From positions 1-61,994 of IMG/VR virus record IMGVR_UViG_3300016476_000949: a stretch of DNA of 61,994 nt; one strand, given 5' to 3'. The translations under genes were made by a program, and so were the position numbers. Below are positions 11,746 to 56,955 of this stretch, piece after piece (position 1 is the stretch's first letter; every line of letters starts with the position of its first letter). Below the pieces are notes generated by a model. The model ran no database searches. It saw nothing but the letters and a program-made list of their open reading frames with translations, and was not told the DNA's origin. The DNA comes from a virus (taxonomy: Duplodnaviria; Caudoviricetes).

Positions 11746-14700
11746 ATGTGCTCATTCGGGTCTAGCAACGCGTCGGCTCCGACGACCCAGTTTTCCACGC
11801 AGACGACGAGCGCCTCTCCTCAGGCGCAAGCCATGTATAATTCTGCGTGGGCCAACGCTCAGAAGGTCTCCCAGCGGCCCTTCCAGCCATACAGCTACGA
11901 CCCGAATGCATTCGTCGCGCCGATGAATCCGGTGCAGATGCAGGGCGTCAACAACATCGCCAGCTATCAGGGCGGCGCTGACCCATTTTACCAGATGGGC
12001 GCGAACATGGCCGGCTATGCCGGCAACACCGCCGCCCCGCAGGTGCTTGGCCAATACACCAACCCCTACATGTCTCAGGTCGTCGACCCGACCCGGGCGG
12101 CGATTGAGCAGCAGCAGGCGTTCCAGCGTCAGGCGCTGGACTCAAATCAGATCAAGTCAGGTTCGTTCGGTCAGGAGCGCGGCCAGCTGATGCGCGCCGT
12201 TCTGGCTGGCCAGCAGAATCTGGGCCTTGGTCAGGCGCTTTCGCCGCTCTATCAAGACGCCTACAAGACCGGTCTGGGAGCGGCTCAGACCGACCTTCAG
12301 CGTCAAGCGCAGACAGCGCAGATAATGGGCGGCCTCGGTCAGGGGTATGTGCAGAGCGGCCTTGGCGGCGCTCAGGCGCTTCTTGGGGCCGGCACCATCG
12401 GTCAGCAGACGCAGCAGGCCGGCCTTCAGGCGCTATACAACCAGTATATGCTCCAGCAGCAATATCCGTTCATGGCGGCGCAGTTTCTGTCTGGAACGGC
12501 GGCGAGCCTCGGGCCGGGATACGGAGGCACGACCAGCGGCTACCAGAGCTCGATGCAGCCGCTCTCGTTCTTCGGCAACGCGCTTTCAGACCCCCATCTC
12601 AAGGTCGGCGCCGAGGGCGAGGAGCCAGAGGTCATTGGCCAGACCCACGACGGTCAGGACATTTACCGATATCGCGTCATCAATCCAGACACCGGCGAGC
12701 CTGGGCCGGTTCAGATCGGCCTCATGGCCGATGAGGTCGAGCAGCGCCGTCCCGACGCCATTGGCGACTACAAGGGCTATCAGACTGTCGATTACGCCAA
12801 GGCGACGGACAACGCTGCCCGGCTCGGTGGCGGTGTGCGTCCGGAAGGCGGCGATTACGCCGACGGCGGATCTGTCGATGACATCGTGCGCTCTCATGGC
12901 GCGATGTATGCCGCCTTGGCCAACCCTCCGTCCGGGATTGTCCCTCAGATTCAGCTGCCGTCGGCGCGCCTTGAGCAGGGCCACCTGTCTTTCTCTTCTC
13001 AACCTCAGGAGAAGAAGGACAGCTTCATGCACACGCTCGGCGATACGGCAAACATGCTGCTCAGCCTCTACAACAAGGCCGGTGAAGCAAAGAAAACATA
13101 CGACAATTGGGGTAAAAACGCCGCCGGCGGCTCCGTTTATGGCGACGACCAGAACGACAAGCCCTTCGAGCTTGGCCAGCTGCCCGTCGCGCATCTCGAT
13201 GCGCCAAAGTTGAGCTTTGCGTCGGACAGGAGGGACGAGGGCGATAGCGGCGGCCTTGGCTCGACGCTGAAGAGCGCCGCCGGCATTGCTGGCTCCCTGA
13301 AGACCCTGTGGGACATTGGCAGCACGGTCGGGCCGGCGCTTATGGCCCTTTCCGATAGAAGCCTGAAGACCGGCGTGCGCCCGGGACGCGCCGATGGCGG
13401 CGGGGTCTTCGACGACTTCGTCAATGCGCTTTCTGGCCACGGCTACATCGACGGTTCGACTTGGGAGCGAGAGGCCGGAGAACCAATGGACATCCGGCCA
13501 TCTGTTCATTTTGAGGAGGGCGTAGCTCCTCGCGCCGCTCGCCGTGCGCCGCGTCATGAGATTGCCGCCGCCCCGCCAGCGGAAGCCAAATTCAATTACG
13601 CCTCTCGCGGTCTTGGCGCTGCGGCGCTGCCGTCGGGTCGCTTTACGCCGTTTCGATACGAGGGGCAGTATGGCCCGGTTGTCGGGTTCCGCGACGCCAA
13701 TACATTCGGCCACACGCCAATCCTGTCTGACAAGGGCTTTGCCAGTTACGACCGCGACCCCGACACGAACGACGTCATCGACCCGCATGGGTACGAATGG
13801 GCGAGGCTCCGCGAGGCCGGTGACGCCAATCGCCCGCTTGGCCCGGGTATCGCAGGTTTTGCTGACGGCGGAGCTAAATACAGCGACGAGGACCTCGACT
13901 ATCTGGCGCGGACATTGGTTCGCGAGGCCGGCGGCGAAGGCGAGCGCGGCATGGAGGCGGTCGGCCACGTGATCCGCAACCGGCTCAATTCCGGAAAATA
14001 CGGCTCCAGCGTCAAGGACGTCGTGACGTCGAAAAACCAATTTGAGCCGTGGAACGAGAGCATGCGCGGCACGAAGGCGGACCCTCGCCTCGTCGACGCC
14101 GGCAGCGACATCTACAACCGCGCCATCGGCGTCGGTCGTCGCGTCATGGATGGGGCCGACGACATCACCGGCGGCGCGATGAATTTCTACAACCCGAAGG
14201 TTGTGAACCCCAAGTGGGCGGCCGGCAAGGAAGGCCTCGACATCGGCAATCATCGCTTCCTCGACGCCAGCGGCTCGCCCGGCGCCGGCGTCGTCCCGTC
14301 GGCCTACGCCGCCAAGGAAGGCCGGCCGGCAAGCGACGCCATCGATGCAATTACGTCTGCGACCTCCGGAAAAGGCGTTAAGCCAGCGCCCGCAGCGGAC
14401 GATTCGTCGCCGGCGCGCGGCATCACCGGGTTCCTGCGTGGCGCGCCGGCGAAGGACGTGGGCGAGAAGGCTGGCGACTTCCTGACCAGCGAGCGCTTTC
14501 TTGTCCCGCTTCTGGCTGGTCTTGGCGGCATGGCGTCCTCCAACAGCCGCTTCCTCGCCCCGGCCATTCTTCAGGGCCTTGGCGCTGGCGCGCAGGCCTA
14601 CATGCAGGTTCCGAAGATCGAGGCGGAGACGGCGCTCACGCAGGCCGAGGCTAGGAACAAGAACACGCTCAACGACAAGTTTGCCGCCGAGGCGGCAGGC

Positions 14701-15714
14701 GCCCAGATGGACAATTTCTTCAAGTCCTTCATGAAGTCGCCATACGGCAACTTCGTCTTCCTGAAGGACGGCACGCCGCTGACGCAGGCCGAATACATGA
14801 AGCAGGCTCGCAGCGGCTCGCCGCCCGAGCTGCTCGGTTCCGTTCCCACCAACGGCTTGGACATCATCAAGAAAGGCGTCGAGACGGCTGGCGGAAAGCC
14901 GGCTGCGGTCGAGGAAAAACCGGCCACGCCGGCGGGCTCGGTCCCGTCCGGGGTTTACGACGAGAATTCCTCGAAAATGGCTCGCAAGGAGGCGGACCTT
15001 GCAATCAATGGCGGCATAAACGCCGAGCAGGCGGCCAAAACGACGGAGGATTACCGCAACTACGTGACCAAGGAGGTCACAGATGCTCGCGAAAATTCAC
15101 CGTATCTGAAGGAGCTGTCGACGACGCTTGCCGACGCCTATGCTCAGGACGGGTGGAATACACCCGGCTTTCAAGCGAATCTTCGCTCAGAGCTCAGCAA
15201 TCTGGTCAACACGCTCTATCGCTCGGCCGGCGGCACGGAAGACCTGTCTTCACTGAAGAGTAACACCGACAAGATCAACAAGATCTCTCAGCTTCTTGCG
15301 GAAAAGCGGGGCTCCGCCGCCGGGCAGCACGCATACGCAGCGTTGGCGGCAATCAAGTCGTCTGTTCCGAATCTTGAGATGAGCCCGGAGGCCGGCGCAG
15401 ATCTCGCGGCGCAGCTCATGGCGCTTCAGCAGCGCGCCGTCGACCGGGAAACGCACTATCGTCGCTATGTCGACGAGAGCAACGGTTTTGCCCGCGACGC
15501 AGGCGCAGATTTCAATGATCCAAAGCGCGCGAGCCGATATCAGAAAGAGCAGAAGGTTCTGAAAGACCTGATGCTGCATGAGCCGCAGGTTCTTAAAAAG
15601 ATGATGGCTGGCTCCGTTTCTCCGGAGCAGATACAGGCGGCAATCGTCAAGATCTATGGCAAAAAGGCTCCGTCTGAGATGTGGCGCTATTTTGCTCCCT
15701 CCGGAAATGGGTGA
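11746..15714 (+). CDS. DNA ejection/internal virion protein with peptidase S74-like auto-processing domain and SleB-like cell wall hydrolase
   Basis: Gln-rich N-terminus with NPY motif; SDPHLK...IYRYR...GLMADEVE...VDY (S74-like, about 12586-12810); LARTLVREAGGE...VGHVIRNR...QFEPW...DITGGAMNFYNP...IGNHRF (Hydrolase_2, about 13880-14260). Confidence 0.8.
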   Translation: MCSFGSSNASAPTTQFSTQTTSASPQAQAMYNSAWANAQKVSQRPFQPYSYDPNAFVAPMNPVQMQGVNNIASYQGGADPFYQMGANMAGYAGNTAAPQVLGQYTNPYMSQVVDPTRAAIEQQQAFQRQALDSNQIKSGSFGQERGQLMRAVLAGQQNLGLGQALSPLYQDAYKTGLGAAQTDLQRQAQTAQIMGGLGQGYVQSGLGGAQALLGAGTIGQQTQQAGLQALYNQYMLQQQYPFMAAQFLSGTAASLGPGYGGTTSGYQSSMQPLSFFGNALSDPHLKVGAEGEEPEVIGQTHDGQDIYRYRVINPDTGEPGPVQIGLMADEVEQRRPDAIGDYKGYQTVDYAKATDNAARLGGGVRPEGGDYADGGSVDDIVRSHGAMYAALANPPSGIVPQIQLPSARLEQGHLSFSSQPQEKKDSFMHTLGDTANMLLSLYNKAGEAKKTYDNWGKNAAGGSVYGDDQNDKPFELGQLPVAHLDAPKLSFASDRRDEGDSGGLGSTLKSAAGIAGSLKTLWDIGSTVGPALMALSDRSLKTGVRPGRADGGGVFDDFVNALSGHGYIDGSTWEREAGEPMDIRPSVHFEEGVAPRAARRAPRHEIAAAPPAEAKFNYASRGLGAAALPSGRFTPFRYEGQYGPVVGFRDANTFGHTPILSDKGFASYDRDPDTNDVIDPHGYEWARLREAGDANRPLGPGIAGFADGGAKYSDEDLDYLARTLVREAGGEGERGMEAVGHVIRNRLNSGKYGSSVKDVVTSKNQFEPWNESMRGTKADPRLVDAGSDIYNRAIGVGRRVMDGADDITGGAMNFYNPKVVNPKWAAGKEGLDIGNHRFLDASGSPGAGVVPSAYAAKEGRPASDAIDAITSATSGKGVKPAPAADDSSPARGITGFLRGAPAKDVGEKAGDFLTSERFLVPLLAGLGGMASSNSRFLAPAILQGLGAGAQAYMQVPKIEAETALTQAEARNKNTLNDKFAAEAAGAQMDNFFKSFMKSPYGNFVFLKDGTPLTQAEYMKQARSGSPPELLGSVPTNGLDIIKKGVETAGGKPAAVEEKPATPAGSVPSGVYDENSSKMARKEADLAINGGINAEQAAKTTEDYRNYVTKEVTDARENSPYLKELSTTLADAYAQDGWNTPGFQANLRSELSNLVNTLYRSAGGTEDLSSLKSNTDKINKISQLLAEKRGSAAGQHAYAALAAIKSSVPNLEMSPEAGADLAAQLMALQQRAVDRETHYRRYVDESNGFARDAGADFNDPKRASRYQKEQKVLKDLMLHEPQVLKKMMAGSVSPEQIQAAIVKIYGKKAPSEMWRYFAPSGNG

Positions 15715-15719
15715 TCGGC

Positions 15720-17552
15720 ATGGAAAAAGACCCCTTTGGAAATCTTTCCGACCGCTCTCACATCTTCGAAGACGAGGATGGTGACCCTTTTGCGGGCCTG
15801 TATTCACTTCCGGCTCACAACGCCCCCATGCCACCGCGCAGGCCGGCGGACATTGCCCCCAAGGCCGCAACCACAACTGATGCGGCCACAGCGGGTATGA
15901 GGTGGTCTGACGTACCAAAGGAGGCCCTCAGGAACGCGTGGCCGAGCGCCGTGAATGCCGCCGAGGGCATGGTTTCGCCGATCCTTCACCCTCAGGACAC
16001 GTGGGAGGCGGTCAAGGGGCTTGGGAAGGGGCTCGTATCCAAGGGAAAGGGCGCGCTCGGATATGAGCGCAACCCCGAAGACGAGAAGACCGTCGACGCC
16101 CTGAAGCAACTTTACGTCGACCGCTACGGCTCGGAAGAGGGCTGGAAGAATTCCATCGCAAAAGACCCTTTTGGCGTCGCCGCCGACGTGTCTTCGCTTG
16201 TCGGTGGCGGTGGTGCGGCCATTGCGCGCCTGCCGGGCAAGGCAGGGAAGTTGGGAAGCGCCATAGAAACAGTTGGGAGGGCGGCAAATCCATTCAACGC
16301 AGCGGCAACGGTGGCGGCCCCGGCCATGCTACCTGCGCAGGCGCTCTTGAACGTCCCTCTCTCGATCAAAAGCGGTGCGCCACTGGCGTCCCTCAACCGC
16401 GCCATGAAGGCGGGCTTCAGGGGAAGTGACGCATTCCTCGACCAGCTTTCCGGTGGCGATCCGGCCCAGATCGTCAACAAGGCGCATGCCGCCGTCTCGA
16501 AGATCGCCGAAAAACGCCGCGCCGATTATCTCTCCGGGATGGCAGGAGTCGCCACAGGGACGACGCCAATCGATTATACCGACATCAACAATGCGCTCAG
16601 GGACGCCTTGAAAGACGTCACTCATGGCAGCAAAACCTACAAGCGCGAAGCCGGCGATATGCTCAGGGAGCTCTCAAACGAGATCCTTGGATGGCAGCGC
16701 ATGCCGAATACGCCGACGGTCAATTATCACAATGTCGAGGGTGTCGATAAACTCAAGCAGCTGGTTGGCGAGATCAGATCAAACGCCAAGCCCGGCTCGC
16801 CGGCGGACGCCGTCGCCACCAAGATCTACAATTCCATCCGCGACACTCTCGGCAAGCATGACCCAAATTACCTGAAGGTCATGGAGAATTACGGCGACCT
16901 GAGCGACCAGCTCAAGCAGCTCAAGGTAACCCTGTCGGTCAATCCAAAGGCGTCGGTAGACACGACTCTTCGAAAGATCCTGCTTGGCGACAAGCAGAAG
17001 GACGGGTCAAAGGGAAAGCTCTTGAGCCAGCTCGCGAAAGAAGACCCTGAGATTGCAAACATGGTCGCCGGCCATCTCCTGAGCTCATGGGTGCCAACCG
17101 GTCTTACCGGAACAATCGGCGCGGCGCTGTCTGCCGCCCATGGATACGGAGCATACTCTGGCGCACTCGGTCCATATGGCGCGATTGCCGGCGCTCTTGC
17201 CTCGTCGCCGCGACTTGTCGGCGCGCTCAACTATGGAGTTGGCAATATGGCTCACCCCGGCGGCGGTCTTCCGGTGCTGGCTACGGCCCCACTCAATTTG
17301 CTGAACTCTGCAAAAGAGCCGCCCGCGCCTCGCGCTTCAGAGGAGCGTCCCTATTTCGGCGACGACGTAGAGCCGGCGCGCCCGGGGCGCGCCACGGGTG
17401 GTCGCACTGGCGGACCCAGTCCGGAGCGCCTGATTACGATGGCGAACGCTTCACGGAGGAAAATACAGGCGCGCTCCAAGGAAATCCTGAAACAGCCTGA
17501 CGAGCATGTCGTACGTGCGCTGAAAGCCGTAAACCAAGAAATGCAGGGGTAA
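15720..17552 (+). CDS. internal virion / ejection protein
   Basis: About 610 aa, helical, Gly/Ala-rich hydrophobic C-terminal region with SSPRLVG motif; follows the ejection protein. Confidence 0.6.
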   Translation: MEKDPFGNLSDRSHIFEDEDGDPFAGLYSLPAHNAPMPPRRPADIAPKAATTTDAATAGMRWSDVPKEALRNAWPSAVNAAEGMVSPILHPQDTWEAVKGLGKGLVSKGKGALGYERNPEDEKTVDALKQLYVDRYGSEEGWKNSIAKDPFGVAADVSSLVGGGGAAIARLPGKAGKLGSAIETVGRAANPFNAAATVAAPAMLPAQALLNVPLSIKSGAPLASLNRAMKAGFRGSDAFLDQLSGGDPAQIVNKAHAAVSKIAEKRRADYLSGMAGVATGTTPIDYTDINNALRDALKDVTHGSKTYKREAGDMLRELSNEILGWQRMPNTPTVNYHNVEGVDKLKQLVGEIRSNAKPGSPADAVATKIYNSIRDTLGKHDPNYLKVMENYGDLSDQLKQLKVTLSVNPKASVDTTLRKILLGDKQKDGSKGKLLSQLAKEDPEIANMVAGHLLSSWVPTGLTGTIGAALSAAHGYGAYSGALGPYGAIAGALASSPRLVGALNYGVGNMAHPGGGLPVLATAPLNLLNSAKEPPAPRASEERPYFGDDVEPARPGRATGGRTGGPSPERLITMANASRRKIQARSKEILKQPDEHVVRALKAVNQEMQG

Positions 17553-17555: not shown

Positions 17556-18365
17556 ATGGTCGCCGTATCGAAGGCAAATTTGCAGCAGCCGACCTACACC
17601 AGCACAAGCTGGAACACGCCGCTCAACTCCAATTTCGGAATCATCACAAACGCCCTCGGTTCGGTAACCGGCGTCTCGGTGACCACGACAGATTATGCGA
17701 TGTCGACGGCGGAGGCGCAGTCTGCGGTCATATCCGTCAGCGGCACGCTAACCGGGGCGCGCTCACTTCTGTTGCCGGTCAACGTCTCCGGGACGTGGAT
17801 CATCCTCAACAACACATCGTCGAATACGCTGTCGGTTTATTCCAACAACGGGTCGGGCGCGGCCGCCGGCGTCGGCGTATCTCCGCCGACCGGATACGCC
17901 TACACAATCTGGAGCGACGGGACCAACGTCTACTACGGAGAAAGTAACGCGGTTCGTAAGAGCGGCGACACGATGGTCGGAGCGCTAGCGCTCCCATCAA
18001 ACGGCCTGAATGTCGGCTCCGGGCAGCTTCAGGTCTCAGGCGGAAACGTCACGACGACGGGCCAGTTCACCGCCTCCAACAACGTCACCGCCTATTCCGA
18101 CGCCCGCCTGAAGGAGGCCATCTCGCCGATCAGCTCGGCGCTGGAGAAGGTCTTGGCGATGCGCGGTGTCACCTTCAGTTATATCGACACCGGAGCGCGC
18201 GGGGCCGGCGTCATCGCGCAGGAAGTCCAGAAGGCGCTTCCTGAGGTCGTCTACGAGGACGAGGATGGATACCTGCATGTGGCATACGGCAACATGGTCT
18301 CCGTCCTGATCGAAGCGATCAAGGAGCTTTCCATCAAGGTCGAGTCGCTGGAGAACAGAAAATGA
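17556..18365 (+). CDS. tail fibre with C-terminal intramolecular chaperone (peptidase S74)
   Basis: KSGDTMVG, TAYSDARLKE...GVIAQEV...VAYGNMV...EAIKEL. Confidence 0.85.
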   Translation: MVAVSKANLQQPTYTSTSWNTPLNSNFGIITNALGSVTGVSVTTTDYAMSTAEAQSAVISVSGTLTGARSLLLPVNVSGTWIILNNTSSNTLSVYSNNGSGAAAGVGVSPPTGYAYTIWSDGTNVYYGESNAVRKSGDTMVGALALPSNGLNVGSGQLQVSGGNVTTTGQFTASNNVTAYSDARLKEAISPISSALEKVLAMRGVTFSYIDTGARGAGVIAQEVQKALPEVVYEDEDGYLHVAYGNMVSVLIEAIKELSIKVESLENRK

Positions 18366-19072
18366 CGCTTCCGTCTGGCGGAACACTGTCCCTGCTCGAC
18401 ATCTACAACGAGGCGCAGCTGTCTCCGACGAGCCCTTGGTATGGGAAGGGAGCCAATCTCGGCTCTTACCGGGGCGTTCAGTGGTGGCAGGACAACTCAG
18501 CAACAGGGACGTTCCCGTCTGGCGCGATATCCGTCAGCGACTTCTACAGCAAGCGCTCCACGTCGCCGGTGACGCCGGGGTATCAGGAATATCTCTCTTC
18601 CGGGACATATACGTTCACGGTCCCCCTCTACAGCACGCTGACGGTTACGGTGAAAGGTGGCTCTGGAGGAGGGGCTGGCCAGAGTGGCAACGCTGCGTCC
18701 GGCGGCTCAGGCGGAGACGGCACGGTCAGCACCTTTGGCAAGTCTCCGGCGACCGTCTACGCCACCGGCGATTACGGCAGGGGCGCGAGTCCCGGCGGCG
18801 TCGGTGCGGCAGGATCTGGCTCCGACGGGTCGCCAGCCGGCGGCGCTGGATGGGGTTCTGGCGGCGCAAGCGGTAAGACCACCGTCGTCCTGACAAACCC
18901 CATCAGCGGCGGCTCCGGGCCGTCCGTAGGGGCGTCCGTGACGGTCGTCGTCGGGTCTCGCGGCGTCGGGGGCGCTCCGGGAGCATACTGGATCACATTC
19001 CCCACCAACGCCGGCTCGTTGGGAAGCGGCAGCCCCGGCAGCGCGGGATCCGTTCAGATCTGGTGGACCTAA
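18362..19072 (+). CDS. glycine-rich receptor-binding adhesin
   Basis: MTLPSGGTLSLLDI...PSGAISVSDFY N-terminus, TFTVP and Gly-rich body; coupled to the fibre gene. Confidence 0.7.
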   Translation: MTLPSGGTLSLLDIYNEAQLSPTSPWYGKGANLGSYRGVQWWQDNSATGTFPSGAISVSDFYSKRSTSPVTPGYQEYLSSGTYTFTVPLYSTLTVTVKGGSGGGAGQSGNAASGGSGGDGTVSTFGKSPATVYATGDYGRGASPGGVGAAGSGSDGSPAGGAGWGSGGASGKTTVVLTNPISGGSGPSVGASVTVVVGSRGVGGAPGAYWITFPTNAGSLGSGSPGSAGSVQIWWT

Positions 19073-45111: not shown

Positions 45112-45317
45112 ATTTCTCGCAGGCGCTTGAACGCATCAAGTGGGGCCAGCCAATGAGCCGGGCGGCATGGTCCGACCCGTCCATCTATGTTTATCGCCCT
45201 AATCCGCCAAATGAAAACACCATGATGCTTCGTGTCCATTCGAGCGAAAGCGTCTGGTCCCCCTCGTCCGTCGACGTCATGGCGGACGACTGGTTCGACG
45301 TTCCAAGGACAAACTGA
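45108..45317 (+). CDS. DUF2829 / Tad2-like protein
   Basis: MNFSQALERIKWG...RAAW...WSPSSVDVMADDW signature. Confidence 0.7.
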   Translation: MNFSQALERIKWGQPMSRAAWSDPSIYVYRPNPPNENTMMLRVHSSESVWSPSSVDVMADDWFDVPRTN

Positions 45318-45318
45318 C

Positions 45319-47760
45319 ATGGCAATGACCCCGGGCTTGGGAGCCGCCCTTCGCCTCGACCAGTTCGCACCGCAGGGTGATCCGCAAGAAGGACCGGGGG
45401 TCGACGTTCAGATCCCGGACGACCCGAAAGCGCTCGCCGGCCCGGATTCGGTTGTCATCGAAGACGATGGTTCTGTTTCTGTTTCTCTTGACGGTCGCCC
45501 GGTCTATTCGTCAGGGCCAGACGATGGCGACGAGTCGAAAGAGTGGTTTCGCAACCTCGTCGACGACATCGGCTCCAGCGAGTTGGTGCAGATCTCCGAG
45601 GACCTGCTGCGCGGCGTCGCCGACGATATCGAGAGCCGCAATGACTGGATCGAGGATCGGGCGCAGGGCCTGAAGCTTCTTGGCCTGAAGGTCGAGATCC
45701 CCGGCTTGCAGGGCGCGACCGACGGCGCTCCTGTCGAGGGCATGAGCCGCGTCCGCCACCCGCTGCTGCTGGAGGCGGTCCTTCGCTTTCAGGCAAATGC
45801 CCGCAGCGAGCTGCTGCCGACCGACGGCCCGGTGAAGGTGGAGAACAATAGCTTCTCGGCGCCCGTCGAGCAGGACCGCCTCGCCGAGTCGCTGGAGCGC
45901 GACCTCAATTATTACCTGACGGTGATCGACAAGGGTTACTACCCCGACACCGACAAGATGCTCTTCATGCTTGGGTTCGGCGGGACGACCTTCAAGAAGG
46001 TCTATTTCTGCCCCCTGCGCGGCAGGCCCGTCTCCGACACGGTCGACGCAGAGGACCTGATCGTCAACAACGCCGCCTCGACGCTCGCCGACGCCAAGCG
46101 GATCACGCATCGCGTCTTCATGCGTTCGTCGACCGTGCGCCGACTTCAGATCTTGGGCGTCTATCGCGACATCGACCTGTCGACGCCGACTTACGAGTCG
46201 CCGGACGCCGCCCAGCAGGAAAAGGCCGCCATTCAGGGCGTGACCATCGAGGCGCGCAATCCTGAGGACCGCGACCGCGAGGTCTATGAGGTTTACTGCG
46301 AGCTCGACATCCCGGGCTTCGAGCATAAGCACAAAGGAAAGGTGACCGGTCTTGAGATACCGTATCGCGTCACCATTGACGTCACTTCAAGGGAAATACT
46401 TTCGATTGTTCGTAATTATGACGAACCTCAGGAGGACTCCAATGCACTTCCGGAGCCGCGACAGGTATTTGTCAAATATTCCTTTGTTCCCGGTTTGGGT
46501 TTTTACGATATCGGTCTACTGCATATTCTGGGTAATACCACGTCTGCTGTTACGGCTGCTTGGCGAGAAATGCTAGACGCCGGCATGTATGCCAATTTCC
46601 CCGGCTTCCTGATGGCGGATATTGGCGCACGGCAGAATACCAACATCTTCCGCGTCCCGCCGGGCGGTGGGGCGCTCGTCAAGACCAACGGCATGCCGAT
46701 CAATCAGGCCGTCATGCCGCTCCCTTACAAGGAGCCCGGTCAGGCGCTGATGAACCTTGTCGCCAACATGGTCGAGACGGGCCAGCGCGTCGGAGGCACG
46801 GCGGAGCTGCAAGTCGGCGAGGGGCGGCAGGATGCGCCGGTCGGCACGACGCTCGCCCTCATCGATCAGGCGACGAAAATCCTCAATAGCGTTCACAAGC
46901 GCCTCCACGCCTCTCAGGCGGAAGAATTCCAGCTCCTGAAGAGGTGCTTCAAGGAAAACCCGGAATCCTTCTGGGGGAAGAACAAGCGGCCTGCCGAACA
47001 ATGGAATGAGCAAATCTTCCGGCAGGCCCTCGAAAACTGCGACCTCGTCCCGCAGGCCGACCCGAACACGTCGAGCCACACGCAGCGCGTCATGAAGGTC
47101 ATGGCGCTCAAGCAGCTACAGGCCGCCAATCCGGGCATGTATAACGCCATCGCCGTCGACACCGCCGCCTTGCAGGCGCTGGGCTGGAACAACCCTGAGC
47201 AGTTCCTCGCCCAACCGGATCCGAACGCACCGCCGCCGCCGGAAGTCGCCCTGAAGCAGCAAGAGCTCCAGATCAAGGCGCAGGAGACGCAGGCGAAGGT
47301 GATGAAGGCGCAGGCCGACGTCGCCAAGATCCAGAGCGAGATCGCCAACGCCGGTCAGGAGGGCGCGCCGCAGCTCGACCCCAACAAGCTCGCCGACCTG
47401 CAGCTGAAGGAGGCCGAGATGCGCCAGCGCATGCTCGACGCGCAGCTGCAGCAGGCGAAGATCGAGGCCGACATGCGTCGCGCCGAGATGACGCTGCATC
47501 AGGCCGACGTCGAGGCGCGCATGCAGGCGCAGCAGATCGCGGCCGACCATCAGGCGGCGCTCTTCAAGAACGAAGACGACCGCCTCGAAGCCATGAACCG
47601 CCAGCGCGACCGCGAGAGCAAGGAGCGGCTTGCTGCTGTGAAGCTGGCCGCAGACATCCTGAAATATCCGGGCGGCAAACAGACGGTCGCGAGCATCGTC
47701 GACAAGGAAACGCTGAAGCGCCTCAGGGATAATGAGCCGCCAATTGAAGGTGAGGTCTGA
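45319..47760 (+). CDS. portal protein with long C-terminal coiled coil (barrel)
   Basis: HPLLLEAVLRFQA, GTTFKKVY, PGLGFYDIGL, PVGTTLAL; Gln/Ala-rich C-terminus; follows terL. Confidence 0.85.
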   Translation: MAMTPGLGAALRLDQFAPQGDPQEGPGVDVQIPDDPKALAGPDSVVIEDDGSVSVSLDGRPVYSSGPDDGDESKEWFRNLVDDIGSSELVQISEDLLRGVADDIESRNDWIEDRAQGLKLLGLKVEIPGLQGATDGAPVEGMSRVRHPLLLEAVLRFQANARSELLPTDGPVKVENNSFSAPVEQDRLAESLERDLNYYLTVIDKGYYPDTDKMLFMLGFGGTTFKKVYFCPLRGRPVSDTVDAEDLIVNNAASTLADAKRITHRVFMRSSTVRRLQILGVYRDIDLSTPTYESPDAAQQEKAAIQGVTIEARNPEDRDREVYEVYCELDIPGFEHKHKGKVTGLEIPYRVTIDVTSREILSIVRNYDEPQEDSNALPEPRQVFVKYSFVPGLGFYDIGLLHILGNTTSAVTAAWREMLDAGMYANFPGFLMADIGARQNTNIFRVPPGGGALVKTNGMPINQAVMPLPYKEPGQALMNLVANMVETGQRVGGTAELQVGEGRQDAPVGTTLALIDQATKILNSVHKRLHASQAEEFQLLKRCFKENPESFWGKNKRPAEQWNEQIFRQALENCDLVPQADPNTSSHTQRVMKVMALKQLQAANPGMYNAIAVDTAALQALGWNNPEQFLAQPDPNAPPPPEVALKQQELQIKAQETQAKVMKAQADVAKIQSEIANAGQEGAPQLDPNKLADLQLKEAEMRQRMLDAQLQQAKIEADMRRAEMTLHQADVEARMQAQQIAADHQAALFKNEDDRLEAMNRQRDRESKERLAAVKLAADILKYPGGKQTVASIVDKETLKRLRDNEPPIEGEV

Positions 47761-47762
47761 TC

Positions 47763-50700
47763 ATGGCTGGAAAGAAAGCGCTCGTCGACCTCGCCAAGAG
47801 CATTATGGCGGGCGAGGAGCCCGGCAAGACCGTCTCGGCCTACAAGCTCTTTCGCCAGAAAAACGACCAGCTTTATCCGCTTTTCGTCAACGCCAATACG
47901 CCTGTTCCGATGGGCCAATGGCTCGACGCCGAGAGCGGCCCTCTCATCGGCGGCAAGGTGAAGTCGAGCCTCGGCCCTCTCGCCTATCGCCCGGGATGGC
48001 ACGCGGGCGACCTGCCCATCGCCACCCACATCGGCGGCAAGTCGGCGCCGGGTCTGAAGGCTCCCGACTATCGCCCTGACAATCAGGTCTGGGCCGAGAT
48101 TTCCATGCCAGACGACGTCGACTGGCAGACGGAGGCGCTGCGTCGCGCGCAGCTTAACAAACGCGGCGAGATCATCCCCCGCACGGCGCACATCACCGAC
48201 CAGATACCGGTCGGCGGCCATTACCGCTACAAGACCAACCCCAACATGACCGGCGACTGGTTGATTGGCGGCTCGATGAAGGTCAATCGCATTCTCCCAG
48301 ATGAGGAGGTGAGGGACATTAACGAAGGAAGCGGCGTCTCCGACTTGCCGCGTCTTTATGAGCTGATGCGCTCCCGCGAGGGGCGCGCGCGTGGCGGCTC
48401 CCTCATCCAAGACCGATTCCCGACGCATTACCTTCCGGGTGTTGGCCGCCAAGTCATGGCGGACGGGGGGGCCGCACCCTCTATGGACAATCTGATGTCG
48501 GCGGTAAATTCGGTATTTACCCGTAGGCCGGCGCAATTCAGCGCGGCCGACATGATCGGGACGCCGACGTCCCCGTTCGTTTCTGGCCCGGGCGCCTACA
48601 CCGATGCCGGTGGTCAGGAGATCGCCGCGCCGTTCGTCACCGGCCTGAAGAACGGCTATCCGGTCCCGCCCGGATTCATGACGCCGCAGCCCAACTCATC
48701 GACCGGCCGTCGTTCGCGCGGCTATCAGTGGTCTAAGGGCTACGAGAAGGGCGGCGTCGCCAAGGTCATACGCGCCGCCAAAGATGTTCTGGCCGGCTAC
48801 TCCGATCCGCCGTCAAGATACATTGACGACTGGAAATGGCGGCCGCTTTCTGATGTTCGCGCCGACATCAAGGCGACGTCGGCCCCGCCGCATGTTCGAA
48901 ATTTCGGAAACGGGAACGAAAAGACGACGCATCAGGACATCATCGACGCCATGCGGCCGCGCGCAGCCGGCGGTCGCGCCGGGTTCGCCGATGGCGGCTG
49001 GAAGCATCAGTTCGCCGACGTCGTCGGCGCGGCGCTGGACGCCGCCAAGAATGTAGGCAAGGGCGAGCGCATCAACGTCTACCACAACTTGGACGCCGAC
49101 AAGATCGGCAAGCTCGTCGACCGGTTTAACGCCATCCCGGCGCCGAGCCTTGCCCTCTCCAAGTTTTCGGGAAGCCCTGTCGACTTTGGCAATTCGACGC
49201 TTGTCGGCCGGCCGCATCTCGCCATCCCGTCGGAAGACAATCACGTCTTTGGCGCAGACGCTTACACCGCCCGCATGCCGCGCATTTTCGGCGCGAATGA
49301 ATTTATCGGATCCGACTTCCCGAAACATGACTTCATCTTCAGGTCGCCTGACGACAACACGAAAGTCCCGGCCTCAATCGAAAACGTGCTCGCGCACATG
49401 CGCTCTCGGCCGGTTCTGGGCGGAGAGGGGATCGCGGTTGGCCCGGGTCTTCTGAAGGCCTTCATGACGCCGCAGCCTAAAACGCTGCGAGACATCCAGC
49501 GCAATCGTTGGAATTTTGCCGACGACGTGGATTCGGAAGACGAGGCTTGGGGCAACGTCAATAGCCGCATCCTTTCGCATGCTCACCTGATGAAGAAGTA
49601 TGCTCGCGAAAAAGACCCGTCTCCGACGGGGCAGCTGACGCGCGCCATGATCGACTATCACAGGGAAGGCGTTCCGGGGTTTGAGCGGACATATACGGAA
49701 TACCCCAGAGAAAACATGAGCGTTGTCAACAGCATCATGGACGACATCAAGGGGCTGAAGCCGTCCTACATGGAGGCCAAGCCGATGCGCCCGGTCGGCT
49801 TCGACGAATTTGCCGGGGCCATCCTCCCCAACGAGGACGTTGGATACAGCGCGTATAAAGCTCTGAAGAGCGCCGGCGTCCCGGAGGAGGGGCTGTATTT
49901 TTACCGCACGCCACAGGAGCGCAAATCCATCATGAAGGAAATCTTCGCGCCTCAGTTTGGTTTTGCCGGCGGAGGGTCTGTCGAGCGCGCCATGGACATC
50001 GTGCGAAACGCCGAGATCGAGCCGCGTGAAATGGAGCCAACGCAGGGAGAGATGGACCGCATCAGGGACATGATGCAGCAGTCGCATCTGAGCGGAGGCC
50101 CGGGCGTCGTCGAGATGCGCGACGCCTCCTACCCGCTTCCGGGAGGCCGCAGCATCCCGCTCGGGCGCTATCCAAAGTCGGCGGTAGATGCGGTTGAGAC
50201 CGTGTCGCCACTCATCGCCAGCGCCGCTCAGATTGCCGCAAACATGCATCCTGCTACGCGCGGAGCGTCGCGCCTCCTCGACCTCGCGCTGCGGGCGAAG
50301 TTCGCTAATGACGTTCGCACCACGGGCCACGGCGATGCGTCGGATTTCTTCTCGATGCTGCCCGGCGCCAAGGCCGACATGATGGGATACGCGGCGGCTT
50401 TCGCCAACGACCCGCATGAGCCGGTGCGCGACGTCTTCCATAGAATGCGCTCCGGCTATGACGCCGGCGGCAGCGCCAAGGCGCGCGCGGCAAAGGAGAT
50501 CGCCAAGTTCATTTCTCTGGACGAGGCTCGCCGTCGCGTCTCCAGCCCGTTCAGCGACGACCCGGATTCGGTCGCAAGGGCGCTTCAATACGTGAACACG
50601 CTAAAGGTCCCGCAGGGCAATGTCATGACCCCGGGCTCGTTCTACAACATCAAGCAGACGCGCCCGGTCTCGGATGTTACGTCGACTGTAAGCAGCATCC

Positions 50701-51740
50701 CCGGCGTTAATCCGCTCACGCCGCGCGACATGACGTGGGAGGACTTCGTCCGCGAGGCCAAGGGCGGCACGCTCTTCAATGTCGCCGGAGACCGTTCTGA
50801 TCTCGGCCGCCTGACGCACATCAACGGGCGCGAGCTGGCGTGGCCGGTCGACCTGCATGCTGGACCAAAATACATGCTGGAGCCCAACCCGGGCGCGATC
50901 TGGGCGAATAATGAGGGGCACGCGACAGGGTTCTGGAATGCGATCAGGGAGGCGGCAAAGCGCGGACCTGTGTTTGGCGTCTATCACCCGATGGGCGTTC
51001 AGTCTGTCGACTCCTCGCACAACATGCTCGACACTCTCTTGTCTCAGATCGCGCTCGGCGAAGCCTACAAGAAGGACATGCGCAACGCTGACAAGATCCT
51101 TCGCGCCGGCGCGCACGCGGCTCCGGCGGACATGGAGCTGGCGCGCGAGGCAATGAAGGGCTGGCCCGGGTTCGAGAATGCGCGCGAGGCGAGCGAATTT
51201 GCGCGCGGTCTTGAGGGCACGCGCCGCTCGGAGATCGTCAAGTTCCTCGACAAGGCCCCGCGCCTTCGCGAGGGCTTCCCCGCCGTCGGCGAGACGCGTG
51301 TCGCAATTACGGACCCGGCGCTTCGCTCCGCCCCCGGCAACATGCTCGGTCATCGCATCGTGCAGTTCGATCCCGACAATCTGACGCCGGAGGCGCTCGC
51401 CTTCAGGCACTCGACCCATCCGAGCCCGACGGGCGGCCGCTATGTCGGCGACGTCCCGTTTGTCCAGTCGCAGTATGTTATGCCTGACGTAGAGCGTAAC
51501 ATCATGACCAATCTCGCCAAGGGTAACCGTGTCGTTCATCCGTTTTCCGACGACAGCCTCGGCCGCAGCTCATGGCGCAAGAGCATGGAAACCCGCAAGC
51601 TCGGTCAGGAAATCAACGACCAAATGCTCGATAGCGTCATGACCGGCATGCAGCGCCATACGGATTACGGATTCCGTAAGGGCGGCCCTGTCGTCAAGCT
51701 TGCGCGTGATGTATTATCCCGCAAGCGGGACGCCGCTTGA
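47763..51740 (+). CDS. large polyvalent (multi-module) protein, probably virion cargo
   Basis: 1325 aa next to the portal; several globular blocks (AYKLF..LYPLFV..RPGWH; YHNL..PSLA..YMEAKP; GDRS..GPKY) separated by eight xxxGG motifs. Confidence 0.7.
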   Translation: MAGKKALVDLAKSIMAGEEPGKTVSAYKLFRQKNDQLYPLFVNANTPVPMGQWLDAESGPLIGGKVKSSLGPLAYRPGWHAGDLPIATHIGGKSAPGLKAPDYRPDNQVWAEISMPDDVDWQTEALRRAQLNKRGEIIPRTAHITDQIPVGGHYRYKTNPNMTGDWLIGGSMKVNRILPDEEVRDINEGSGVSDLPRLYELMRSREGRARGGSLIQDRFPTHYLPGVGRQVMADGGAAPSMDNLMSAVNSVFTRRPAQFSAADMIGTPTSPFVSGPGAYTDAGGQEIAAPFVTGLKNGYPVPPGFMTPQPNSSTGRRSRGYQWSKGYEKGGVAKVIRAAKDVLAGYSDPPSRYIDDWKWRPLSDVRADIKATSAPPHVRNFGNGNEKTTHQDIIDAMRPRAAGGRAGFADGGWKHQFADVVGAALDAAKNVGKGERINVYHNLDADKIGKLVDRFNAIPAPSLALSKFSGSPVDFGNSTLVGRPHLAIPSEDNHVFGADAYTARMPRIFGANEFIGSDFPKHDFIFRSPDDNTKVPASIENVLAHMRSRPVLGGEGIAVGPGLLKAFMTPQPKTLRDIQRNRWNFADDVDSEDEAWGNVNSRILSHAHLMKKYAREKDPSPTGQLTRAMIDYHREGVPGFERTYTEYPRENMSVVNSIMDDIKGLKPSYMEAKPMRPVGFDEFAGAILPNEDVGYSAYKALKSAGVPEEGLYFYRTPQERKSIMKEIFAPQFGFAGGGSVERAMDIVRNAEIEPREMEPTQGEMDRIRDMMQQSHLSGGPGVVEMRDASYPLPGGRSIPLGRYPKSAVDAVETVSPLIASAAQIAANMHPATRGASRLLDLALRAKFANDVRTTGHGDASDFFSMLPGAKADMMGYAAAFANDPHEPVRDVFHRMRSGYDAGGSAKARAAKEIAKFISLDEARRRVSSPFSDDPDSVARALQYVNTLKVPQGNVMTPGSFYNIKQTRPVSDVTSTVSSIPGVNPLTPRDMTWEDFVREAKGGTLFNVAGDRSDLGRLTHINGRELAWPVDLHAGPKYMLEPNPGAIWANNEGHATGFWNAIREAAKRGPVFGVYHPMGVQSVDSSHNMLDTLLSQIALGEAYKKDMRNADKILRAGAHAAPADMELAREAMKGWPGFENAREASEFARGLEGTRRSEIVKFLDKAPRLREGFPAVGETRVAITDPALRSAPGNMLGHRIVQFDPDNLTPEALAFRHSTHPSPTGGRYVGDVPFVQSQYVMPDVERNIMTNLAKGNRVVHPFSDDSLGRSSWRKSMETRKLGQEINDQMLDSVMTGMQRHTDYGFRKGGPVVKLARDVLSRKRDAA

Positions 51741-51763
51741 TCCTCTAGCTAGGGAACGGACGA

Positions 51764-52300
51764 ATGTATCAGATGGCGAAGAGCGCGCGCGAAGCGCTCA
51801 AAGGCAAGGCCAAGCGCCTTGCCAGTGAGAAGGTCGGAAAGGTCGACGCAACCAGCGTCTCTCGCCCGGAAGCATTCGAGGCCGACAAAAAGACCGGCCT
51901 TCAGCCAACGACCCGCCGGGCCTACAAGAAGGGCGGCGCGGTCAAGGAAAACCGCAAGGGCAAGGATCAGGATCACGACGCCGCCGAGCGTCCGGGACGC
52001 AAGAATGGCGGCGTGACCGTCATCAACATCGGCAAGGGTGCGAGCGACGCGCCGATGGCCGCTCCCCGCCCCGTCCCTGTCCCGATGCCGCAGGTTTCCT
52101 CCCCGCCGCCCATGCAGTCGCAGATGCCGGCCGTGCCGCCGCCCCCGCCGCCGGCTCCGGGCGCGCAGAAATCTCCTCTGGCGCTGAAGACCGGCGGCCG
52201 CGCCACCAAGGTGGCTAAGAGCTACAAGGACATGCGCGCCGGCGCCGGGAGCGGCGAAGGACGTCTTCAGAAGACGGACATCGCCAAGAAGCGCGCATAA
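51764..52300 (+). CDS. basic, Pro-rich protein with three xKxGG motifs
   Basis: YKKGG, RKNGG, LKTGG; AGAGSGEGRLQK C-terminus. Confidence 0.65.
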   Translation: MYQMAKSAREALKGKAKRLASEKVGKVDATSVSRPEAFEADKKTGLQPTTRRAYKKGGAVKENRKGKDQDHDAAERPGRKNGGVTVINIGKGASDAPMAAPRPVPVPMPQVSSPPPMQSQMPAVPPPPPPAPGAQKSPLALKTGGRATKVAKSYKDMRAGAGSGEGRLQKTDIAKKRA

Positions 52301-52402: not shown

Positions 52403-52624
52403 TTGTCGATATTGACGACGGCGGATCGTTTCCGCCGCGAGCTGGAGGCGCTTCTGAATGAGCGCATCCAAGCTTACATGACCCAAGCAGCCGCCGGCAT
52501 TCCGTTGGATTACAGCGAATATTCTCGCTTGGTCGGGAGGATTGCCGGCCTGCGCGAGGCTCTCGATGAGATCGGAGAGGCCGCGCACAGACTTTATTAC
52601 GAAGAAGGAGAAGGGCGAAAATGA
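52403..52624 (+). CDS. conserved small head-module protein
   Basis: DYSEYSRLVGRIAGL motif; precedes the GroES-like gene. Confidence 0.65.
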   Translation: MSILTTADRFRRELEALLNERIQAYMTQAAAGIPLDYSEYSRLVGRIAGLREALDEIGEAAHRLYYEEGEGRK

Positions 52625-53019
52625 GCATTGCAATGGCGCACGACGTCGACCCGAAAGAGAAGATCCTTGCGGAGATCGGCGACATCAGCAGTGTCAAACT
52701 GCTGAACAACAACATCATGATTGCCGTTTATATCCGCCCCGAAAAAACCAAGGGTGGAATTATCATCAATGACCGCGTCCGCGACGAAGACCGATTCCAG
52801 TCTAAGATCGGAATGATCGTCGCGATGGGTCCGTCTGCCTTCAAGGAAGACGAGTCGGACCCCAAGTGGTTCAACGGCATGACGTTCAACGTCGGCGACT
52901 GGGTTTTGTTTCGACCGGCCGATGGATGGACCGTCACTGTTAATGGCGTCTCCTGCAGGATCCTCAGCGACGTGCAGATCAAGGGCGTTATTGGAAACGA
53001 CGTAGACATGGTGTGGTAA
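52621..53019 (+). CDS. GroES-like co-chaperonin
   Basis: EKTKGGII mobile loop, IVAMGP, VGDWVLF, RILSD.QI.GVI. Confidence 0.8.
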   Translation: MSIAMAHDVDPKEKILAEIGDISSVKLLNNNIMIAVYIRPEKTKGGIIINDRVRDEDRFQSKIGMIVAMGPSAFKEDESDPKWFNGMTFNVGDWVLFRPADGWTVTVNGVSCRILSDVQIKGVIGNDVDMVW

Positions 53020-55318: not shown

Positions 55319-56224
55319 ATGGCCGTGAACCTCAGTGCAATAAAAGACCTTCTCCTTCCCGGTCTCCGTGGGGTGGAGGGTCGTTACGACCAGATCCCGT
55401 CACAGTATGACAAGATCTTCACCAAGCACGACTCGAAGATGGCCCTTGAGCGCACCGCTGAAATGCGCTTCCTCGGCCTCGCCCAGCTGAAAACTGAAGG
55501 CGGCCAGACGGCTTTCGACAACAACGCTGGTGAGCGTTACGTCTACAATCAGGAGCATACGGAAATCGCTCTTGGCTACGCGATCACTCGCAAGGCCATC
55601 GACGACAACCTGTATAAGACCCAGTTCATGCCGTCCAACCTCGGTCTGATTGAATCGTTTCAGCAGACCAAGGAGATCTACGGCGCGAACATCCTGAACA
55701 CCGCGACGACCTACAACTCCTCCATCGGCGGCGACGGCAAGGCGCTCTGCGCTTCTGACCATCCCATCGATGGCGGCACGGTGTCGAACTACACCACTAA
55801 CGACCTGAACGAAGCCACGCTGCTGAACGCGATGATCGCGATCCGCACCAACTTCAAGGATCAGGCCGGCCTGAAGGTGTTTGCTCGCGGTCGTCGTCTC
55901 GTCGTTCCTGCGGCTCTTGAGCCGGTCGCCATTCGCCTTACCAAGACGGAACTGCGCCCCGGAACTGCCGACAACGACGTCAACGCGATTATGATGACCG
56001 CCGGCGGCCTGCCGGAAGGTTACATGGTCAACGACTTCCTGACGTCGGCCAAATACTGGTATCTGCTCACGAACATCGACGGCCTCTCTTACATGGAGCG
56101 CGTAAAGTTCGAGACCGACATGCAGGTCGACTTCGTCACGGACAACCTGCTTGTGAAGGGCTACGAGCGCTACTCGTTCGGCTACTACAACTGGCGTGCG
56201 ATCTACGGCGCCTTCCCGAGCTAA
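55319..56224 (+). CDS. major capsid protein (HK97 fold, Mu gpT-like)
   Basis: LLLPGL, KTEGG, ALGYAIT..AIDDNLY, GDGKAL...HP, LVVP..L, ERYSFG; strong codon bias and RBS. Confidence 0.9.
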   Translation: MAVNLSAIKDLLLPGLRGVEGRYDQIPSQYDKIFTKHDSKMALERTAEMRFLGLAQLKTEGGQTAFDNNAGERYVYNQEHTEIALGYAITRKAIDDNLYKTQFMPSNLGLIESFQQTKEIYGANILNTATTYNSSIGGDGKALCASDHPIDGGTVSNYTTNDLNEATLLNAMIAIRTNFKDQAGLKVFARGRRLVVPAALEPVAIRLTKTELRPGTADNDVNAIMMTAGGLPEGYMVNDFLTSAKYWYLLTNIDGLSYMERVKFETDMQVDFVTDNLLVKGYERYSFGYYNWRAIYGAFPS

Positions 56225-56772: not shown

Positions 56773-56955
56773 ATGGGTGCTTACAAGGGACCGGCGTCGA
56801 CCATCAAGGACGCCGAAAAGAAGGACGAGGGCTTCAAGAAGGGCGGCAAGGCCGACAAGAAGTGCTCGGGTGGCCGGGCTGCCCGCAAGTCTGGCGGCGG
56901 AGTCTTCTCGTCGGCCAAGGCCGGCACGCCGAGGGGCAAGGCCTCTCATTACTGA
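56773..56955 (+). CDS. small basic protein with three xxxGG motifs
   Basis: FKKGG, KCSGG, RKSGG; AGGAGG RBS. Confidence 0.65.
   Translation: MGAYKGPASTIKDAEKKDEGFKKGGKADKKCSGGRAARKSGGGVFSSAKAGTPRGKASHY

Follow-up and report, generated by a model that had tools for sequence, protein, structure and literature searches.

The modules of the cargo proteins of a tailed phage are delimited by a short motif built around a Gly-Gly pair, both in the genome analyzed here, IMG/VR record IMGVR_UViG_3300016476_000949 (61,994 nucleotides, henceforth referred to as the window), and in hundreds of its relatives. The motif was originally written, in an earlier note on the same DNA, as the five-residue regular expression (regex) [FYMRLKN]-[AKRDEC]-x-G-G. 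It was found in five proteins of the window: a 1325-residue polyvalent protein encoded directly behind the portal gene, a 1322-residue ejection protein, a 623-residue protein downstream of the latter, a 178-residue Lys-rich protein and a 60-residue basic protein (coordinates in Table 1). The observation was confirmed in the window and extends beyond it. As to function, the motif is tentatively read as a docking or loading tag that stays uncut, a reading to which a probability of roughly 0.4 is given, in preference to a cleavage site.

The open reading frames (ORFs) of the window, 71 in total, were called with simple scripts of our own, and regex matches in each protein were compared with those in 500 composition-preserving shuffles. 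The five named proteins contain 20 matches against 4.7 expected. Eight of these lie in the 1325-residue protein (1.42 expected; none of the 500 shuffles reached 8), five in the ejection protein (1.78 expected, p = 0.03), three in the Lys-rich protein (0.26 expected, p = 0.004), three in the 60-residue protein (0.37 expected, p = 0.004) and one in the 623-residue protein, which shows no enrichment on its own (0.84 expected). All motifs listed in the earlier note were recovered at their exact coordinates, and its tally of about 19 became 20 with the addition of REAGG at 13921, the fifth match of the ejection protein, which sits within the cell-wall hydrolase domain and looks like chance. Over all 71 ORFs, 27 matches were counted against 14.4 expected. 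The remaining 66 ORFs hold 7 against about 9.7 expected, three of the 7 being in one Gly-rich fibre-like protein; the motif is limited to cargo-type proteins, and its earlier description as genome-wide was too broad.

Because the linkers are rich in Gly, Ala and Lys, a local control was added in which the 8 residues upstream of each isolated Gly-Gly pair were shuffled in place. The upstream flank was present at 17 of 40 Gly-Gly sites in the five proteins, compared to 5.6 ± 2.1 after local shuffling, and no excess was seen in the rest of the window (6 of 103 sites, compared to 7.0 ± 2.5). Additionally, 71 dereplicated C-terminal tails from other genomes, none of them from the window, were made into a profile that was run over the 71 window ORFs. 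The Lys-rich protein ranked 1st, the 60-residue protein 2nd, the 1325-residue protein 3rd and the ejection protein 5th; the 4th rank was taken by a weak match (E 0.08) to the mobile loop, residues 41–55, of the GroES-like protein. At the nucleotide level no common stretch was found at the 20 sites, and the codons differ.

Replication was examined in 80 loci with a related portal, whose plus-strand ORFs were called and classed by position, with the regex kept as first written; removal of near-duplicates retained 513 of 968 ORFs. The 82 post-portal proteins of these loci contain 406 matches against 67.8 expected (6.0-fold; 8.4 per 1000 residues), counts that are not independent events since the relatives are homologous. 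Portal proteins (6 matches, 9.6 expected), upstream proteins (20, 25.2 expected) and downstream head proteins (8, 7.5 expected) have 0.3–0.5 matches per 1000 residues. Under the local shuffle, the upstream flank was present at 348 of 660 Gly-Gly sites of the dereplicated post-portal proteins versus 114 ± 9, and Val or Ile at position +2 at 218 sites versus 77 ± 8, while the other proteins of the related loci gave 21 versus 27 for the flank and 46 versus 44 for Val or Ile at +2. A further set of 122 proteins of at least 300 residues, mostly database homologues and including 3 from the window, contains 584 matches against 154.9 expected.

The fuller core of the motif is G-[F/Y/R/K]-[A/K]-x-G-G-x-[V/I]. 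Among 507 dereplicated contexts, Gly occupies position −4 in 22%, position −3 is Lys, Arg, Tyr, Met or Phe, and position −2 is Ala in 25% and Lys in 23%; position +1 is mostly Lys, Arg, Ala, Glu or Ser and mainly polar, and Val or Ile is found at +2 in about 25% and, with the local-shuffle set included, in about 25–33% of sites. A tandem form with Gly-Gly pairs 8 residues apart also exists, both in the window and in proteins of the spring-water metagenomic phage MW202675, the closest named relative (portal about 60% identical). Behind the motif a helix of the type G-S-V-I-D-x-A-L-x-V-V is found, and 57 of 104 matches to this helix pattern have a Gly-Gly pair no more than 12 residues before them. 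The earlier note had described an amphipathic helix as often following the motif; a helix does follow, as a tendency only, with a high helical hydrophobic moment at 20% of 623 sites in relatives compared to 12% of random windows.

The 1325-residue protein is composed, in order, of an N-terminal helix, a module referred to as D1 (residues 18–207), a disordered linker (208–430), a folded module (430–735), a low-confidence helical region (738–900), a further folded module (909–1302) and a C-terminal tail. AlphaFold models covering residues 1–745 (model 1) and 730–1325 (model 2) contain folded blocks at about 20–210, 430–735 and 909–1302, and segments with a predicted local distance difference test (pLDDT) score below 50 at 215–359, 399–421, 736–745, about 730–904 and 1303–1315. 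Seven of the eight motif Gly-Gly pairs fall in these low-scoring segments, and only three residues separate the eighth from the start of one (binomial p about 0.0015). Helices are predicted at residues 332–344, 413–429, 740–744 and 1310–1324, each behind a motif.

D1, which is matched by phrog_30118 at residues 25–199, is 55–75% identical across about 80 differently built proteins, where it takes N-terminal, middle or C-terminal positions, and its alignments stop at residues 190–219, at the RARGG motif. D1 was also seen in proteins of 2400–3900 residues from other viral lineages, and no fold match was found for it. A conserved module of about 25 residues (48399–48470, plus strand; residues ~213–236) is enclosed by RARGG and MADGG. 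This short module, with about 35 residues between the two Gly-Gly pairs, turns up in the post-portal proteins of 26 or more related loci, at either terminus or internally, and is possibly another linear motif that has a function of its own. At the next site, YEKGG, the first Met of 14 free-standing homologues aligns to residue 332 or 333, directly behind the motif.

The C-terminal tail of the protein gave the best i-E (independent E-value) of the window against the foreign-tail profile, 7e-4. Its Tyr, Gly, Gly-Gly and Ala positions are at least 90% conserved in a 32-row alignment, and the same type of tail ends most homologues. The folded module that precedes it, residues 909–1302, possibly has a YTH/ASCH-like core, of the modified-base reader type, with a helical insert. 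This assignment comes from comparison of the model by VIA-align, which aligned 145 residues to 4u8t_A with a middling Z of 7.5 and a root-mean-square deviation of 3.8, all top 10 rows being YTH/ASCH-type. Foldseek against the PDB returned nothing at E ≤ 0.001 for either model; among its weak rows, model 1 was paired with ADP-ribosyltransferase effectors and model 2 with YTH. Profile searches of PDB sequences gave nothing useful. A homologue of residues 909–1302 is labelled 'type I restriction enzyme' in MW202675, a label for which no support was seen.

Homology breaks where the motif stands. Alignments of 119 database homologues to the 1325-residue protein start or stop at residues 190–219, 320–349, 380–419, about 740, 890–929 and 1310–1325, which are motif sites. 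For 209 homology breakpoints in 31 large post-portal proteins, the median distance to a motif was 50 residues compared to 104 for random positions, and 22% of breakpoints compared to 7% lay within 10 residues of a motif, a difference to which alignment extension into the shared motif may contribute. A given module may be part of a fusion or form an ORF by itself, and the split then falls precisely at the motif; in MW202675 the region is split into four ORFs, one of which stops three residues past a Gly-Gly pair. In low-G+C homologues the ART-PolyVal, InPase and D1 modules are each flanked on both sides by motifs, and where the domain is a known one, as with ART-PolyVal, the helix adjoins its first strand. 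The statement of the earlier note that the motifs fall at domain boundaries is borne out by these data and by FADGG of the ejection protein (residues 705–709), which lies just ahead of the Hydrolase_2 domain (730–838).

Protein termini show the same association. In 83 of 156 proteins the distance between the last motif and the C-terminus is 10–39 residues, compared to 18.0 ± 3.9 proteins under uniform placement, and the C-terminal tail is conserved to its last residues. None of the 156 proteins ends exactly at the Gly-Gly pair; some end 2–3 residues past it and retain GG-x-V. Many proteins have the helix at their start instead; in one count it opened 14 of 162.

Among the other carriers, the ejection protein consists of an N-terminal ejection domain, a linker with four motifs, a SleB-type cell-wall hydrolase and a C-terminal helical part. 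A close relative (locus L085) retains the first motif and the helix in its ejection protein, and the MW202675 orthologue also has the tandem form, yet its regex matches number no more than 2, with 1.59 expected. In the MW202675 orthologue of the 623-residue protein a motif stands at the corresponding point, at residue 566 of 620. The 178-residue Lys-rich protein, which is predicted to be disordered, has at least 653 longer homologues that have no annotation and no Pfam family. In 120 of these homologues 1281 motifs were counted against 171 expected, with a median of 10 and a range of 6–17 in each protein and a sharp spacing peak at 8 residues. Members of this family (P0124-P0243) also have a conserved N-terminal basic helix and, near the C-terminus, a conserved unit of about 25 residues in 1–3 copies, with a motif ahead of each copy. 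An Atlas search with the Lys-rich protein returned viral clusters only, none of them with a name. A DUF6321 protein, standalone in the window, is fused in other phages, including loci L101-L104, to the C-terminus of D1-bearing polyvalent proteins; the DUF6321 protein of the window ends in a Cys-containing basic tail.

Polyvalent proteins were described by Iyer, Burroughs, Anand, de Souza and Aravind in 2017 (PMC5512222) as large proteins that are encoded next to the portal or terminase, contain shuffled effector domains and are predicted to be packaged and injected. Their processing by an in-built metallopeptidase domain is proposed there, and P1 DarA and DdrB are given as processed. A polyvalent protein of 2811 residues is reported as detected in phi24B virions (bioRxiv 10.64898/2026.04.10.717836). 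The carriers described here fit this class in the sense of PMC5512222. Several unrelated effector domains are present in the relatives, whose 45 post-portal proteins gave matches to ART-PolyVal (6), Methyltransf_23 (4), PBECR5 (3) and LPD23 (2), among other families; the window protein has a sub-threshold PBECR5 match (21.2 bits, cut-off 25) and three separately folded modules. Shuffled architectures were also seen in the 463 database homologues, with further fusions by precomputed Pfam accession, which we take to be InPase, M15 peptidase, transglycosylase, GNAT and Zeta-toxin families; one homologue was checked and does carry InPase. The genes are late genes beside the portal and terminase, in the same order in MW202675 and the 80 loci, and D1 is found at any position with the other modules recombined around it among the 119 listed homologues. 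Interchangeable effector domains, as the earlier note had supposed, are thus carried by the relatives. The metallopeptidase domain, which is frequent and not obligatory in the class, was not seen: no peptidase family was matched in the 1325-residue protein at E ≤ 0.01. To judge from gene position and weak family matches, the five proteins would be internal to the virion and are probably injected.

The motif is restricted to some lineages and is no common property of polyvalent proteins. In other lineages, those that bear D1 or ART-PolyVal show no excess over chance, with 1 match versus 1.22 expected in roseophage CRP-212 gp38 and 3 versus 1.79 in Pseudomonas phage F116 p60; 44 further D1 loci gave 63 versus 52.3. 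Loci L101-L104, which belong to another group, do carry the motif (25 matches versus about 6). Among distant cultured relatives, which have the same head genes, few sites were found in HTVC027P and CRP-902 and none in Caulobacter phage RW. This restriction argues for a lineage-specific reader over a generic linker.

According to the favoured reading, the motif would be a junction element of the cargo proteins of this lineage, in which a short strand-like stretch around a Gly-Gly hinge would commonly be followed by a capped amphipathic helix of the type given above. Such junctions would bracket each independently folding module of the polyvalent and ejection proteins, cargo proteins would usually start with the helix and end in motif, helix and basic end, and the Lys-rich disordered family would consist largely of motif repeats. 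A component of the lineage's head may read the motif in trans, as an uncut docking tag, and binding by this component would load all cargo into the procapsid, hold the proteins as strings of beads and present them for exit through the portal. We infer the binding, the partner and the absence of cleavage from several observations taken together. Four findings speak for a sequence that is read by another component and against a passive hinge: residues are specified on both sides of the Gly-Gly pair, a disordered polycation has retained the motif, the tails are conserved, and only certain lineages carry it. An uncut tag is favoured because the primed side is conserved, the tails are conserved to their ends, proteins end in GG-x-V, the capsid, scaffold and portal have no sites and no protease was found. 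In the proteins that end in GG-x-V, cutting would take off next to nothing, and the unit has been kept all the same; the Lys-rich family, which being disordered needs no hinge yet keeps the motif precisely, lends support to a tag. All classes of cargo share the motif, and the capsid, scaffold, portal, tail and replication proteins do not. Of the pair of functions put forward in the earlier note, a cleavage site or a packaging tag for interchangeable effector cargo, the packaging tag would better fit the conserved C-terminal tails; the motif, the module borders and the interchangeable domains stand, and cleavage lacks a protease among those searched for.

Several points weigh against the docking tag. 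No binding partner was found, and the placement of the carriers in the virion derives from gene position and weak family matches. The ejection-protein part is statistically weak (p = 0.03; 2 versus 1.59 in the orthologue). Eight or more tags per protein exceed the needs of a targeting signal. An exposed Gly-Gly pair between domains is the kind of site that viral maturation proteases use, and the interchange of fused and split forms with a downstream ORF starting at GG+1 is what would be expected if the fused forms were cut there. About half of the window genes are without known function and may hide a protease, and a host protease may act instead. The data do not decide between binding and cutting.

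Cutting is the more serious of the competing explanations, possible though on present evidence doubtful. A phage or host endopeptidase would cut at or just after the Gly-Gly pair, during head maturation or after injection; this would free the effector modules, strip targeting helices from the termini, as happens in T4, and break up the Lys-rich protein into short basic peptides that remain with the DNA. Sites in disordered linkers exactly at module borders, the interchange of fused and split forms with the downstream Met at GG+1 in 14 homologues, and the 8-residue spacing in the Lys-rich family, which would yield short basic peptides, are consistent with cutting, and Gly-Gly-X maturation is used by adenovirus and African swine fever virus. 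The processing of P1 DarA and DdrB, and the processing proposed for polyvalent proteins generally (PMC5512222), point the same way. Searches for the enzyme argue against it. Pfam and PHROGs scans of 38 window proteins, drawn from the head, tail and ejection modules and from the genes ahead of the terminase, matched no peptidase family other than the Peptidase_S74 chaperone of a tail fibre, and no adenain/pS273R-type cysteine protease or prohead protease; a 200-residue head-module protein has only viral look-alikes in the Atlas, none with a name; tblastn with the SprT-like protease of MW202675 gave no match in the window; and among the 45 post-portal proteins of relatives a single weak match to a putative metallopeptidase was seen (DUF6782, E 5.7e-4). 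The sequence of the site also fits poorly, with Ala or Lys at −2 (P4) and the hydrophobic or basic residue at −3, since known Gly-Gly proteases prefer a hydrophobic P4. Cutting is further disfavoured by the conserved primed side (Val or Ile at +2, then the helix), by the site-free capsid, scaffold and portal, and by the lack of proteins ending at Gly-Gly when several retain GG-x-V at the very end. A two-part address code, in which the helix loads the cargo and the Gly-Gly pair is later cut by a protease, would combine the two functions and is considered unlikely.

A passive joint, improbable to a slightly greater degree, would dispense with any reader: the hinge and a module-capping helix would let modules travel with their own ends, and the short joints would favour recombination that exchanges modules, by analogy with the glycine-rich motifs of T-even adhesins. 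The clustering of breakpoints at the motif, the helix that abuts the first strand of ART-PolyVal and the predicted disorder of the linkers all agree with this, yet a hinge needs no aromatic or basic residue at −3, no Ala or Lys at −2 and no Val or Ile at +2. A joint also leaves unaccounted for the retention of the motif in the fully disordered Lys-rich family, its absence from equally shuffled polyvalent proteins of other lineages and the C-terminal tails, which follow no module; moreover no DNA-level repeat was found at the window sites, where codons differ. It is very improbable that the motif mimics the GroES mobile loop (a basic residue, x, Gly-Gly and hydrophobics) and recruits GroEL to the linkers, whether in assembly or in refolding after injection. 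The idea draws on the 4th rank of the phage GroES-like mobile loop among 71 ORFs, on the GroES homologue conserved in the head module of the group and on the 6–17 copies per Lys-rich protein; a far-fetched extension would have these 6–17 handles recruit the GroEL of the new host to refold modules threaded unfolded through the tail, so that injected effectors would bring a refolding code with them. The profile match is weak, however, position +1 is mostly polar where GroES has three hydrophobics, and the GroES gene is also present in motif-free relatives such as Caulobacter phage RW. Chance or composition, meaning a loose five-residue pattern picked post hoc in Gly-, Ala- and Lys-rich proteins, has a negligible probability. 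The regex is degenerate, and the 623-residue protein (1 versus 0.84) and the marginal ejection protein would suit such an explanation, but it is contradicted by both the whole-protein and the local shuffles, by replication in other genomes with the regex fixed beforehand, by the recovery of the same window proteins with a profile from foreign genomes and by the coincidence of the motif with termini and breakpoints.

The candidate partner was sought in the head module. When the 46 C-terminal residues of the polyvalent protein were put together with the major capsid protein in a complex prediction, the score was 0.00, a result that speaks neither for nor against binding. Resemblance of the cargo helix to the helix of the portal C-terminal tail was considered and dropped since a helix-only profile did not match the portal, and the idea that the scaffold C-terminal domain has the same Gly-Gly and helix build was dropped because the Gly-Gly pair is not conserved in 20 distinct homologue C-termini.

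Short elements with comparable tasks are known from other systems. The T4 capsid targeting sequence is an N-terminal peptide of internal proteins, including Alt, and is removed by gp21 at L/I-x-E. It is likewise a short peptide common to unrelated internal proteins, and T4 cargo includes an injected ADP-ribosyltransferase; the T4 tag is single, N-terminal and removed by protease, whereas the tags proposed here are N-terminal, C-terminal and internal and are built on Gly-Gly. The adenovirus protease and African swine fever virus pS273R mature virion precursors at Gly-Gly-X, also in exposed linkers, and a basic core precursor is cut into small peptides; these sites have a hydrophobic residue two places before the Gly-Gly pair, whereas here Ala or Lys stands there and the hydrophobic or basic residue (aromatic, basic or Met) stands three before. 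The encapsulin cargo-loading peptide is short, stands at the cargo terminus behind a Gly-rich linker and binds to the inside of an HK97-fold shell. It shares with the tail described here a short conserved terminal sequence behind a flexible stretch (pLDDT < 50 in the present models) that is portable between cargo proteins; it has another consensus, and in the present case the copies are many and also internal and the shell would be a phage capsid. In T-even adhesins, glycine-rich motifs delimit swappable segments, partly through DNA homology. Those adhesins are receptor-binding tail proteins, in contrast to the presumed internal carriers with no DNA-level repeat studied here. Functionally, the element most resembles a T4- or encapsulin-type targeting peptide or an adenovirus-type site, and it matches the sequence definition of none of them.

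The known class closest to the carriers is that of the polyvalent proteins (PMC5512222), with the same location beside the portal and shuffled effectors (ART-PolyVal, PBECR5, LPD23 and InPase in relatives); the in-built metallopeptidase proposed there was not found in the window protein. A term search of the main text of PMC5512222 returned no mention of the junction motif, the tails or the Lys-rich family, and its supplementary alignments could bear on novelty. Literature searches on capsid targeting, Gly-Gly prohead proteases and polyvalent packaging signals gave no description of them either, and a search for strings of the motif gave nothing on phages. What is added here to this known class is the junction motif together with its conserved tails and the Lys-rich companion family, all confined to some lineages. 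Phages are known to inject polyvalent proteins, and the loading, ordering and delivery of such giants are poorly understood; a portable element common to all cargo proteins of a widespread aquatic lineage therefore offers a handle on cargo loading. Should it prove to be a loading tag, phages would have their own equivalent of the encapsulin cargo peptide, and with it there would be a means of packing proteins of choice into capsids; should it be a cleavage site, it would point to a Gly-Gly maturation protease in tailed phages. In either case it provides a simple annotation marker for module borders and for the unannotated Lys-rich family.

Table 1 Coordinates of the motif-bearing proteins, their sites and neighbouring head genes in the window.
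Feature	Position	Strand	Basis or remark
1325-residue post-portal polyvalent protein (P0001)	47763-51740	+	ORF, AlphaFold models, 463 database homologues
Module D1, residues 18-207	47814-48383	+	phrog_30118
Motif RARGG	48384-48398	+	then conserved short module ending in MADGG
Motif MADGG	48456-48470	+	inside pLDDT < 50 segment 215-359
Motif YEKGG, residues 327-331	48741-48755	+	then helix 332-344; gene fission point
Tandem RAAGG-x3-FADGG, Gly-Gly pairs 8 residues apart	48960-48998	+	alignments stop here
Motif FAGGG with helix	49962-49976	+	closes folded module 430-735; alignments end at about residue 740
Motif YDAGG with helix	50457-50471	+	precedes folded module 909-1302; alignments begin at 890-929
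Folded module, residues 909-1302	50487-51668	+	AlphaFold, pLDDT mostly > 90
C-terminal tail: FRKGG, amphipathic helix, basic end	51672-51737	+	foreign-tail profile
178-residue Lys-rich protein, predicted disordered	51764-52300	+	motifs at 51923, 51998 and 52184; Atlas pLDDT 0.46
60-residue basic protein	56773-56955	+	motifs at 56833, 56860 and 56884
Ejection protein, 1322 residues (P0002)	11746-15714	+	phrog_4287 at residues 10-354, Hydrolase_2 at 730-838
Motifs of the ejection protein	YADGG 12856, NAAGG 13117, RADGG 13387, FADGG 13858	+	regex
623-residue protein downstream of ejection protein	15681-17552	+	RATGG 17388 near the C-terminus, then helix
DUF6321 protein, 89 residues	57001-57270	+	Pfam DUF6321, 5e-20
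Terminase large subunit, 1284 residues	41038-44892	+	next to portal and polyvalent genes
Portal protein (SU10-type), motif-free	45232-47760	+	family matches; directly upstream of polyvalent gene
GroES-like (Cpn10) protein	52621-53019	+	head module, between cargo genes and scaffold
Major capsid protein	55319-56224	+	

The window of about 62 kb is a tailed-phage genome of 60% G+C in which structural genes run through both ends. The late genes follow the order terminase large subunit, SU10-type portal, polyvalent protein and Lys-rich protein, after which come the GroES-like, scaffold-like and major capsid proteins and small proteins. From the start of the window, an SU10-type adaptor, fibres, the ejection protein with its SleB-type hydrolase and the 623-residue protein are encoded. 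More distant named relatives than MW202675 are pelagiphage HTVC027P, Caulobacter phage RW and roseophages CRP-901 and CRP-902. The head modules of this whole phage group have a GroES homologue in common, which was seen in HTVC027P, Caulobacter phage RW, CRP-902 and MW202675. The major capsid protein is 87–93% identical in relatives whose portals are only about 60–74% identical and whose cargo is thoroughly shuffled.

The terminase large subunit apparently holds two inteins, one of the Hint type at residues ~90–330 and one with a LAGLIDADG endonuclease at ~496–894. A fibre-like protein (17556-18365, plus strand) has a C-terminal Peptidase_S74 intramolecular chaperone domain. Some of the stray matches to the regex stem from two very Gly-rich proteins (5044-5940 and 18362-19072, both plus strand), one with 39 Gly-Gly pairs in 298 residues, that bear no relation to the junction motif. 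A NUMOD3-type homing-endonuclease-like gene (1138-1827, plus strand) lies between the adaptor and the next structural gene, and MW202675 has a counterpart in the same place.

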